A stretch of 64,000 nt of DNA from a virus (lineage: Duplodnaviria; Heunggongvirae; Uroviricota; Caudoviricetes; Herelleviridae): IMG/VR virus record IMGVR_UViG_3300020128_000040. One strand, given 5' to 3'. The position numbers were made by a program. Shown here one piece after another: positions 51,001 through 54,000 of this stretch. Numbering within the stretch: position 1 is the first letter of the stretch; each line of letters starts with the position of its first letter.

Positions 51001-54000
51001 AGGATTCGCATCAAGCGCAACCAGCGGATCAAGGACCGGATCAACCAGGACTACAACAAGGGCCCGTCCACCGGCCGGATCACCGGCCTGGGCCGGGACG
51101 AGACGCAGATCCTCCAGGGCGACGACCCGACCCTGGGATACTAGGAAGCAAGCAGCACGCAGCACTACGAGACAAAGGAGGACGAGATGTCCATCAGGAG
51201 CATGGTAGAAGAGTCACTGGGGTACGTGACCCCGCAGGAGCGCGAGCAGATGCACGCGTGGGAGAAGGAGATCGAGGCCGAGAAGGCGGCCGCCCAGCAG
51301 GGCACCGCCGCGACCACGATCAACTCCGGGCTGGGCACGGCCCTGGACTTCGGCGACAAGGCTCTCAACGGCCGCGTCATCGCGGAGTCCGACGGGCGCG
51401 TGTCGTCCCGGCCCAAGGTGCAGCGGCGCGTCATCACCGAGGAGGTCTCCAGCCAGGACCTGGGTCCCGACTTCTGAGACGGGGCCGGCCGGGGCGGGCA
51501 CCCTCGCCCCGGCATCGTCCTGTGGTAGTCTATAGGCTGGTAGACCAGCCGAAAACGGCTGCCTGAGACGAACGCGCAGAGACTTGAGACTGATGGAGGT
51601 AGCCGACATGGCAGACAACGACACGAGGACGACCAAGAAGGAGTTCCTCGCAGCCGTGTCCAAGCGGGCCGGCGTGACCGGCAAGGTGGCGCAGGACGTG
51701 TACGCGGCCATGGTCGACGAGCTCCTGGAGACGGTCTCCGACGGCAGGGACCTCCTGCTCACCGGCTTCGGGCGGTTCTACGCCCGGACCCACGCCGGGC
51801 ACAGCGTGCAGTTCGCGGCGGGCGACGACGGCGAGCCTGCGGTGATCGACGACTACCGCGTGCTGAAGTTCTCCGCCTCCCGCGAGGTCAACCGCGGCCT
51901 CGACAAGAAGACGTAGCCGGGGAGCAGCGCTCCCCCGGTGTGAAAAGACAAGACCCCCGCAAGCCGTGATGGCTCGCGGGGGTCGTCTACTCCTACAGGG
52001 TCACCAGTCGCTCTCGGCGACCAGGTGATGAGGGCCGGAGGGGTCGTCGGCCCGGGCCACGGAGGCCCTGGTGACGAACGGGCCCTCGTAGCCGCCCCAG
52101 GAGGGGCTGTCACCGTCGGCGCGGAACGCCTCGAGGTCGGCGGCACGGGCTCCGTAGTCCTCGAAGAACGGCTTGTCGTCCTCGGTGAGGTACTCGGCGA
52201 CGGCCTTGACCAGCTCGTCGGCGGCCTGCTCGGGGCTCTGCCCCTCGCGGGGCTCGACCTCCAGGTGGACGACCAGGCGCACCTGGGCGCGCCCGGCGCT
52301 CACAGGGCCCTCCAGGCGATGACCTGGCCACTGTCGGCGACGACGAGCTCGAACGACCCCGTCTCGCGCCCGGTCAGCTTCGGGCTGGTATCCGAGGGGT
52401 GGATGCCCTGCTCGGTCAGGTAGAGGCCCTGGGTCGAGTGGAACCGGTAGCGGGTCGGGCGCGAGCGCCCGCCCGGGATCTTCTCCACGCGCTGGACGTC
52501 GACGACGACCGGGCTGCCGGTGCGTGAGGGTGAGGACATGCTCTGTGCTCCTTCTGTGATCTGTTTGCGGGTGGTGGTGGCGGCACGCGCCGCCGGTCAG
52601 GAGTCGAGGAGGTCCTCGATCTCGCCCCAGCGGTCGTAGACGTCCTCCCAGCGAGAGGCGACGTCCTGCATGCGCGAGCGGGTCGCGGCGTCCTCGGCCA
52701 TGGCGTCGTCCCACGCGGCGGGGTCGTCGATGAGCGACTCCACGTGCGACCTGATGAGGTCGACGAGGACCGGCGGGTCGAGGGCGTCCAGCTCCCAGGA
52801 CTGCCGGCCGTAGCGCTGCACGTAGCCCGAGCCGCGCGAGTCCGTCAGCTTGGCCGGGTTCGGCGGCGGGCCGTACTGGTTGATCTGCGCCATGGTGAGC
52901 GCGATCCGGCGCACGTCGACGTCGAACCCGGCGAACATCGACAGGCGGTCCCGGATGTCCCGGGACATGTCGATGCCCGAGGGGTCGTGGTCGCCCAGGT
53001 GGAAGACCACAGGCTCGAAGCCCTGCGAGGCCACGGCCCTGATCCGCTGGGCGGCGGCCCACATCTCCGACTGCGACACGTAGCCACGGCAGGAGAAGTA
53101 CGGCGCGAACAGCGGGTCGGCGGCGCGGGAGACGACGTCCACCAGGGCGTCCTTCTCCACCCACACCCAGGGGCGGGACAGCTGGCCCGAGACCTCCCAC
53201 ACGTCGCGCTTGAACTGCGACGCGCTCGCGTCGATGATCGAGGAGGGCGAGCCCCAGGTGGTGACCCGGCGCTCGTTGCGGGTGCGGTCGGTCAGGTGGT
53301 CCCAGTCGATCAGCCCGGCGAGCCGGGCGTCGTTGACGATCGAGCCGAGCCGCTTGTAGGAGCGGTCGGAGTTCTCGATCAGCGCCTTGGCGACGAACTG
53401 GTAGTACAGCTGGCGCAGCGTGAGCTCGTAGCCCATCGCCGCGTACTGCTCGCAGATGTCGTTGGCCTGCTCGATGATGTCGAGGGTGTCGGCCCGGAAG
53501 GCCTTCTCGACGTAGACGATGCGGGGCATGCCATCACTCCTTGTCCTGGGTCGGCGGCACGAGCCGGTCGACGGCGAGGCCCGCGTCGGCCACGGCGGAG
53601 CGCAGCTCCAGCCGCAGCGCGGGGTCGAGCCCGGGGGCGCTGTCGACCCTGTCGTACAGGGCGGTCAGGTGCCTTAGCAGGGCGTCCTTGGTGGTCGGCA
53701 CGGGGTCCGCCATGTCACTCCTCCTCCACGGTCACCTCGGCGACCTCGTACACGGAGTCGCCGTCTGCGCCGAGCCCGTGGAGGGTTTCGCCGTCGAGGG
53801 CGTTCTCCACGAGGTCGACGAGCTGCTCGGCGATCTCCTCGCGCGAGGCGAACTTGCCGGACTCGCGCTCCACCGAGACCTCGGCCACGATCCTGAAGGC
53901 GTGCGCCATCAGGACCGCCGCTCCGCCATGAGCCTGAGCAGGGCGCGGCGCTCGGTCTCGACCCGGTCGAGGTCGATCTTGAAGTACTCGGCGAGCACGG

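Follow-up and report, generated by a model that had tools for sequence, protein, structure and literature searches.

A Topo Mini-A protein without a B subunit on a conjugative-plasmid-type element

How is a protein resembling the A subunit of topoisomerase VI (Top6A) to be understood when it is encoded apart from any B subunit, and what kind of element carries it? The question is raised by a 64,000-nucleotide stretch of DNA held as IMG/VR virus record IMGVR_UViG_3300020128_000040 (the whole stretch is called the window below), in which a 310-aa open reading frame (ORF) lies at 52597-53529. A preliminary description of the sequence had delimited this ORF, and we recovered it at the same position, on the minus strand and with an ATG start (Table 1). 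Because its GC content at third codon positions (GC3), 0.99, fits a sequence of ~71% GC, we regard it as a real gene. The gene encodes a typical Topo Mini-A, and nothing in the protein differs from the family; the window is a conjugative-plasmid-type element and not a phage.

Family identity, fold and conserved residues

Topo Mini-A was defined by Takahashi, Da Cunha, Krupovic, Mayer, Forterre and Gadelle (NAR Genom Bioinform 2020, PMC7671362) as proteins of ~300 aa with a truncated 5Y-CAP domain, a Toprim domain, an RxxY/FY signature, an E...DxDxxG motif and no B subunit. The same authors use the T2BI box as a discriminator, which reads xWELDAL in Mini-A, R/KxExxA/S in Topo VI and RVELNAM in Topo VIII. 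The window protein agrees with their Mini-A in length, in its RxxYY and E...DxDxxG motifs, in an exact xWELDAL box, in the lack of a B subunit and in its residence on a mobile element, and differs from it in context only. It matched phrog_6247 ('DNA topoisomerase') over its full length (PHROGs, E=5e-99), and homologous clusters number at least 8000 at 90% identity and 7,323 at 50% identity, so that the match is far beyond chance. Most homologues are 290-350 aa long. Pfam, NCBIfam and PADLOC searches with the protein gave nothing meaningful, the only Pfam match being a spurious one to EcoRII-N (E=0.21), and neither phmmer with the protein nor hmmsearch with a profile of the alignment A1 found a Top6A or Spo11 among PDB sequences. 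Mini-A, one of the three branches into which the type IIB topoisomerase/Spo11 family divides, is very abundant in phages, prophages and some plasmids.

Conservation was read from two alignments, A1 with 36 homologues (54-100% identity) and A3 with 17 sequences (27-79% identity), the latter including a Bacteroidota phage, a divergent Streptomyces plasmid group and an archaeal plasmid protein (BDI55143.1, annotated 'Topo Mini-A', 27% identical). Residues R39, Y43, E125, D180, D182, G185, E246 and A249 are invariant throughout A3, E246 and A249 thus being kept down to 27% identity; the RxxYY, E125, DxDxxG and SWELDAL motifs are likewise invariant in A1, and F takes the place of the neighbouring Y42 in some members. 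The segments that the preliminary description had picked out, LRQLYYQF, VWVEKDALVD and LGDHDPSGIDMSRDI, are found at aa 38-45, 122-131 and 178-192; the SWELDAL box and the conjugative-plasmid-type surroundings were both absent from it. One further motif, at aa 221-232, ranks among the most strongly conserved parts of the family, its K227 and D230 being invariant to 27% identity. That it might be a DNA-contacting loop is only a guess, and the available excerpts of PMC7671362 contain no discussion of it.

A structural model built with AlphaFold2 (AF2) from A1 had a mean predicted local distance difference test score (pLDDT) of 88.5 and a predicted template modelling score (pTM) of 0.76. In a Foldseek search of the PDB, only two chains matched it at E<=0.001, and both are A subunits in the Methanosarcina mazei topoisomerase VI DNA-cleavage complex (9o0g; probability 1.0, 313 aligned columns). 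The TM-score of this match is low (0.34), which indicates that the two domains are differently oriented relative to each other. The model also matches MksG and Spo11, and a search of BFVD folds gave partial Toprim/primase matches only. These results support a fold composed of a winged-helix CAP domain and a Toprim domain as in Top6A, and with it the earlier proposal of a Top6A/Spo11-like protein of this build that lacks a B subunit. In the model, DSSP assigns helices at aa 13-31, 38-47, 55-70 and 95-105 to the winged-helix domain; judged by residue numbers, the first helix begins at residue 13 and the tyrosine stands at 43, compared with Y106 in M. mazei and Y103 in M. jannaschii.

The modelled fold, the tyrosine on the winged helix, the Toprim Glu and DxD residues and the predicted Arg-Glu clasp are thus those of Top6A and Spo11, whereas the window protein has no Top6B/GHKL partner and no Pfam match to any Top6A/Spo11 family. 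It is also ~60-100 residues shorter than the ~400-aa Top6A, and according to PMC7671362 the segment that is missing from Mini-A is the N-terminal part of CAP that binds Top6B. Its box reads WELDAL where Top6A has R/KxExxA/S, and it carries an extra C-terminal helical, mostly acidic tail, of which no Top6A counterpart was identified. Within this tail W294 is invariant among close relatives. The acidic character varies (13 of the 17 diverse members have it), and an acidic tail was rejected as a universal family trait. Topo VIII, a plasmid-borne type IIB enzyme, resembles Mini-A in being carried by mobile elements and in lacking the N-terminal CAP segment (PMC7671362), but it has a fused or adjacent GHKL-transducer and an RVELNAM box, neither of which belongs to the 310-aa, SWELDAL-containing window protein.

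Four homologues (P0181, P0189, P0212 and P0229; 650-712 aa) contain a LAGLIDADG intein of ~360 aa that matches the intein endonuclease PI-PkoII (E=6e-7). It lies 1-3 residues before the predicted catalytic Toprim Glu (VE/C...HN/CWVEKDAL, equivalent to 53155-53166 of the window), and its position beside this residue is a single, indirect argument that the active site is functional. A shorter insertion, located after about residue 204, is seen in many other homologues. The window protein brings no new architecture to the family; it confirms that the whole Top6A catalytic set, including the Arg-Glu pair of the clasp, is invariant across wide diversity.

The carrying element and exchange with actinophages

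In PMC7671362 Mini-A is described as carried by viruses and proviruses only. The window copy lies outside that setting, on a backbone with a MobL relaxase and a type IV coupling protein (T4CP), a departure in distribution and not in the protein. Plasmid CP109461 of Streptomyces sp. NBC_01454 has the same backbone order, lysozyme-MobL-AAA-T4CP-giant protein-HU, with identities to the window of 63% for the T4CP, 51% for MobL and 45% for the giant protein. Streptomyces sp. NBC_01454, Gordonia KTR9 and Rhodococcus fascians all have large plasmids that carry both the relaxase and the giant protein, and staphylococcal MobL plasmids offer a more distant case of the same pairing. Next to the coupling protein, the giant protein is conserved on MobL plasmids of the first three genera, and partially on those of Staphylococcus and Lactococcus. 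The cell-wall hydrolase and the coupling protein are likewise shared with Streptomyces, Gordonia and Rhodococcus plasmids and, like the relaxase and the giant protein, are absent from phages. No phage homologue of the giant protein was found. A phage origin of the whole window was considered and rejected, the plus-strand block being a plasmid conjugation backbone without phage homologues. No VirB4-like ATPase was recognised in the window.

Three metagenomic relatives of the Mini-A protein (P0006, P0008 and P0012; 69-75% identity) lie in the same block, on a MobL/T4CP plasmid-type backbone, and the 169.7-kb scaffold L007 also has the giant protein (55%), an 895-aa protein, HU, MazG, MazF and a UvrD helicase. 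The closest relative on a long contig (P0004, 79%) belongs instead to a temperate actinophage, where its gene lies just after the integrase/helix-turn-helix (HTH) switch and upstream of HNH and RecT genes; another (P0025, 64%) is near holin, endolysin and tail-fibre genes, and two more (P0016 and P0011) are in large phage-like nucleotide-metabolism regions. Because the closest relatives alternate between the two kinds of element, we conclude that the Mini-A gene has moved between actinophages and a plasmid lineage, in which it is accessory cargo. When the 8-kb neighbourhood was compared with phages by megablast, the sole match, of 338 bp, fell inside the Mini-A gene.

More distant homologues are widespread. 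Tblastn located them in 77 phage genomes (30-53% identity), including Pseudomonas NP1/PaMx25-like, Xylella Sano/Salvo and Chi-like Salmonella phages, Listeria LWP01 and Microbacterium Fizzles, and several are annotated 'DNA topoisomerase' or 'DNA topoisomerase VI'. The Listeria, Pseudomonas and Salmonella proteins are 44-55% identical to the window protein (LWP01 49.5%, NP1/PaMx25 and SPN19 46-47%), and relatives found in a scan of GTDB are only ~50% identical. Homologues of Mini-A occur on 42 plasmids in PLSDB and are for the most part distant (26-31% identity). The presence of Mini-A in archaeal elements that are not viral had been pointed out before by Medvedeva et al., and together with the PLSDB homologues this means that a 'virus-only' distribution was already softening; a close-knit clade that shuttles between temperate actinophages and MobL/T4CP plasmids weakens that picture.

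The usual setting of Mini-A is a phage early replication/recombination module. In annotated phages its gene stands among those for ligase, Sak4-like annealase, Cas4-type exonuclease, helicase, primase, single-stranded DNA-binding protein (SSB), RuvC and polymerase. A Pfam census of 77 Mini-A neighbours in nine bacterial genomes of different phyla recovered components of lysogeny switches (integrases, serine recombinases, cI-like HTH proteins and ImmA) and of replication and recombination (DUF2800 exonuclease, AAA_24, Enc34-type SSB, Prim-Pol, D5_N and SNF2/RecD2 helicases).

Partner subunits and the predicted activity

Does the protein have a partner? The preliminary description had seen no GHKL protein nearby, and our searches agree: Pfam found no GHKL/HATPase or transducer domain in 50 proteins of the window, which is part of the element only, and a regular-expression scan of window ORFs of at least 120 codons found no Bergerat N/G1/G2 arrangement. 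The published conclusion that there is no 'Mini-B' (PMC7671362) accords with this result. When the ORFs lying up to 6 kb from Mini-A at 17 loci were compared all against all by BLASTP, no neighbour proved common to every locus. The MazG-like and phrog_4657 genes recur near Mini-A at four loci each, all in the actinobacterial-type group, and the 59-aa ORF upstream of Mini-A in the window is not kept beside it at the other loci. We therefore rejected the 59-aa ORF, the AAA ATPase, MazG and phrog_4657 as a conserved 'Mini-B' neighbour, since none is common beyond the actinobacterial subgroup. The lack of a co-inherited partner argues that Mini-A acts alone or with host factors.

Top6A offers a guide to what such a protein might do. 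The T2BI glutamate of M. jannaschii Top6A, E340, forms hydrogen bonds with both R99 and the catalytic Y103 (PMC7671362), and in M. mazei Top6A an R102-E342 'electrostatic clasp' holds Y106 off the Toprim triad E202/D254/D256, with the E342Q mutant hyper-cleaving DNA (PMC13040014). The equivalents of the M. mazei set would be R39, Y43, E125, D180, D182 and E246, with R39 and Y43 corresponding to R102 and Y106. On balance, we consider it fairly probable that the window protein is a stand-alone Mini-A, a homodimeric, tyrosine-linked enzyme that nicks or breaks DNA and rejoins it under regulation in the service of element replication or recombination, here as plasmid cargo exchanged with actinophages. 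By analogy with Top6A, the homodimer would have two composite active sites, in each of which Y43 of one protomer would attack a phosphodiester near the Mg2+ site of the other (E125, D180 and D182), which would leave the DNA joined to the tyrosine as a 5'-phosphotyrosyl intermediate, with a free 3'-OH, in a break that could later be resealed. Since R39-E246 corresponds to the Top6A clasp, cutting is probably gated, with the clasp restraining cleavage until DNA geometry or a further partner releases it. There is no ATPase or gate subunit, and the enzyme is therefore probably not a strand-passage topoisomerase. Its 3'-OH or DNA ends might serve, for example, as starting points for rolling-circle or recombination-dependent replication; for the Mini-A of skuldviruses, a role in initiating rolling-circle replication has been suggested.

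Three points qualify this account. The protein is acidic (pI 4.7, with a net charge of -11 in the tail); no published activity assay for any Mini-A was found in the literature; and the gene is dispensable for the backbone, because the sister Streptomyces plasmid has a convergent block facing HU without Mini-A. A bolder version seems doubtful to us, namely that the protein is a self-contained, ATP-independent, non-HUH nickase or maker of double-strand breaks, gated by the R39-E246 clasp and using Topo VI/Spo11 chemistry, that initiates replication, moved from actinophages to a conjugative plasmid and drives vegetative, non-conjugative replication or recombination-dependent replication there. 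Were it correct, Spo11-like programmed breakage would be a widespread strategy of prokaryotic mobile elements and a plausible ancestor of type IIB enzymes; more generally, if Mini-A proves to be a stand-alone programmed DNA breaker, this would bear on the origin of Spo11 and Topo VI and on the start of replication in many phages.

Among the competing explanations, two are about equally improbable in our estimation. The first makes the protein the A subunit of a genuine, ATP-dependent type IIB topoisomerase, with a partner that is a 'Mini-B' diverged beyond recognition, an ATPase of non-GHKL type (the AAA protein of the same strand block, for example) or a protein supplied by the host. The AAA ATPase (phrog_2376) has a 51% identical counterpart in L004, a syntenic locus; Pfam matches nothing in several of the large window proteins; and Takahashi et al. 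leave room for an unrecognised partner (PMC7671362). However, neither L007 nor any of the phage contexts has the AAA gene, the 25 families listed in the census include no GHKL protein, and according to PMC7671362 the CAP segment that would receive Top6B is the one missing from Mini-A; these observations add to the absence from the window of a GHKL domain or Bergerat pattern and to the absence of a neighbour common to the 17 loci.

The second is that the protein keeps the TopoVI-A fold as a catalytically silent DNA-binding or architectural protein. The Microbacterium phages Fizzles and BirdInFrench annotate their homologue as 'DNA binding protein', and the literature reports no enzymatic activity for any Mini-A. 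Against this, the tyrosine, the three acidic ligands, the clasp Arg and Glu and the DxDxxG motif are invariant across 27-100% identity in bacteria, archaea, phages and plasmids, and inteins sit next to the catalytic Glu. A silent role is unlikely because the invariance of all catalytic residues would be hard to explain without catalysis.

We give still less credence to a nuclease effector of defence or inter-element competition that cuts foreign DNA in the manner of JetD/MksG. These proteins of Wadjet/MksBEFG have SMC-kleisin partners and other motifs, whereas the window protein matches no PADLOC family at E<=10, no JetABC/MksBEF or other SMC/kleisin genes were found nearby or among the window proteins scanned, the T2BI box is of Mini-A type, and the context is usually a replication/recombination operon of early phage genes and not a defence island; the retained catalytic tyrosine and clasp also suit cleavage and religation better than plain nuclease action. 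That the protein is an unrelated Toprim enzyme, either a primase like DnaG or a nuclease like OLD or RNase M5, whose N-terminal helical domain is fortuitous, can be dismissed as exceedingly improbable, because matches to such proteins span no more than the Toprim core of ~100 residues, Top6A alone gives a whole-chain alignment (the 313 columns noted above), and the invariant RxxYY and WELDAL motifs of the CAP domain and T2BI box are specific to type IIB A subunits.

Gene organisation and other features of the window

Table 1. Positions of the Mini-A gene, its motifs and the other features of the window (winged-helix boundary and helices from DSSP on the AF2 model)
Feature	Position	Strand	Details
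Topo Mini-A gene	52597..53529	-	310 aa + stop codon; ATG start; supported by GC3, phrog_6247, AF2 model, Top6A fold
N-terminal winged-helix (5Y-CAP-like) domain	53191..53529	-	aa 1-113; boundary approximate, inferred
LRQLYYQF, RxxY/FY signature	53395..53418	-	aa 38-45; R39 clasp/DNA-contacting Arg, Y43 predicted catalytic Tyr
Toprim domain	52774..53184	-	aa ~116-252
VWVEKDAL	53143..53166	-	aa 122-129; predicted metal-binding Glu E125 (+ K126), both invariant in A1 and A3
DHDPSG, Toprim DxDxxG	52975..52992	-	aa 180-185; predicted metal-binding motif; D180, D182, G185 invariant in A1 and A3
PPPNPAKLTDSR (PPPNPAK-TDSR)	52834..52869	-	aa 221-232; strongly conserved family motif in A1 and A3
SWELDAL, T2BI box	52780..52800	-	aa 244-250; exact xWELDAL match; E246 predicted clasp partner of R39
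C-terminal helical tail	52600..52773	-	aa 253-310; net charge -11; helices 252-264, 270-292, 294-299, 301-309; pLDDT >90
Shine-Dalgarno AAGGAG	53537..53542	-	7 nt 5' of Mini-A ATG; abuts stop codon of upstream ORF; read from sequence
59-aa ORF upstream of Mini-A	53534..53713	-	GC3 0.98; stop codon 4 nt before Mini-A start
79-aa ORF downstream of Mini-A	52300..52539	-	GC3 0.95; final gene of minus-strand block
Intrinsic-terminator-like hairpin	51942..51984	-	14-bp stem, 11 GC pairs, T-run; closes minus-strand block
MazG-like pyrophosphohydrolase (MazG-like/PRA-PH)	53909-54841	-	Pfam/PHROG
phrog_4657 protein	55247-56350	-	PHROG match
dNMP kinase, T4-type	56265-57077	-	Pfam/PHROG
AAA ATPase phrog_2376	57308-58438	-	Pfam/PHROG; 3.8 kb upstream of Mini-A, same strand block
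MazF/PemK-like toxin domain	61030-61719	-	in 229-aa protein
UvrD_C ORF	63043-64000	-	frame open to 63999
GmrSD-like type IV restriction enzyme	673-1899	+	DUF262/GmrSD_N + HNH
Plus-strand block	3.3-51.9 kb	+	products include SPFH protein, UvrD helicase, pentapeptide-repeat protein
Type IA topoisomerase	11230-13410	+	Topoisom_bac + Toprim + Toprim_Crpt/DUF3945
Cell-wall hydrolase	22729-24714	+	
MobL relaxase	29507-31705	+	
ClpB-like AAA+ protein	33499-35355	+	
VirD4/TraG-type coupling protein (T4CP)	37852-41853	+	
Giant protein	42032-47581	+	1849 aa; Pfam RNA_pol_Rpb1_2 match
HU-family DNA-binding protein	51584-51916	+	

The 59-aa ORF just upstream of Mini-A is probably co-translated with it because its stop codon so closely precedes the Mini-A start; it has no Pfam or PHROG match. 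The 79-aa ORF on the other side likewise matches no family in either database, and a homologue of it lies 1.3 kb downstream of Mini-A in L007. The terminator-like hairpin is 36 nt past the stop codon of the convergent HU gene and separates HU from the Mini-A block; with this exception, repeats around the convergent junction are chance-like. The conjugation block ends with the HU gene in the window, in L007, in L005 and in the Streptomyces plasmid. Neither a tRNA nor a sigma-70-like promoter was found near the Mini-A gene, and the whole window is without tRNA genes.

The MazG, Dnk and AAA genes that the preliminary description had listed as neighbours are present. A phage-style nucleotide-metabolism pair, MazG-like and T4-type dNMP kinase, thus accompanies phrog_4657 on a plasmid backbone (53909-57077, minus strand), and related phage loci also carry dCMP deaminase, PNKP and ThyX. 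These genes could hint at modified DNA or at manipulation of the deoxynucleoside triphosphate pool. The MazF/PemK-like protein is about twice the usual length and is conserved in the syntenic L004, L007 and L022; no obvious antitoxin was identified adjoining it.

Many conjugative elements carry a type IA topoisomerase, and with the one found here the element encodes two unrelated Toprim-containing DNA-cleaving proteins, cleavage by Mini-A being predicted. At aa 1386-1396 the giant protein reads SFDGDFDGDS, which resembles the catalytic Asp triad of beta-prime, and its L007 orthologue matches RNA_pol_Rpb2_6; from these motifs it looks like a single-chain two-barrel RNA polymerase. Further large backbone proteins, of 757, 1165, 746 and 895 aa, have no Pfam match. 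Rather than a stand-alone fragment, the UvrD_C ORF is the C-terminal portion of a large helicase of the UvrD family, which is 985 aa long in L007 and is here cut by the window end. At the opposite end, the first ~4 kb, which encode the GmrSD-like enzyme, have a clearly lower GC content of 0.58-0.60 compared with ~0.70; they may mark the boundary of the element or a defence gene acquired recently.

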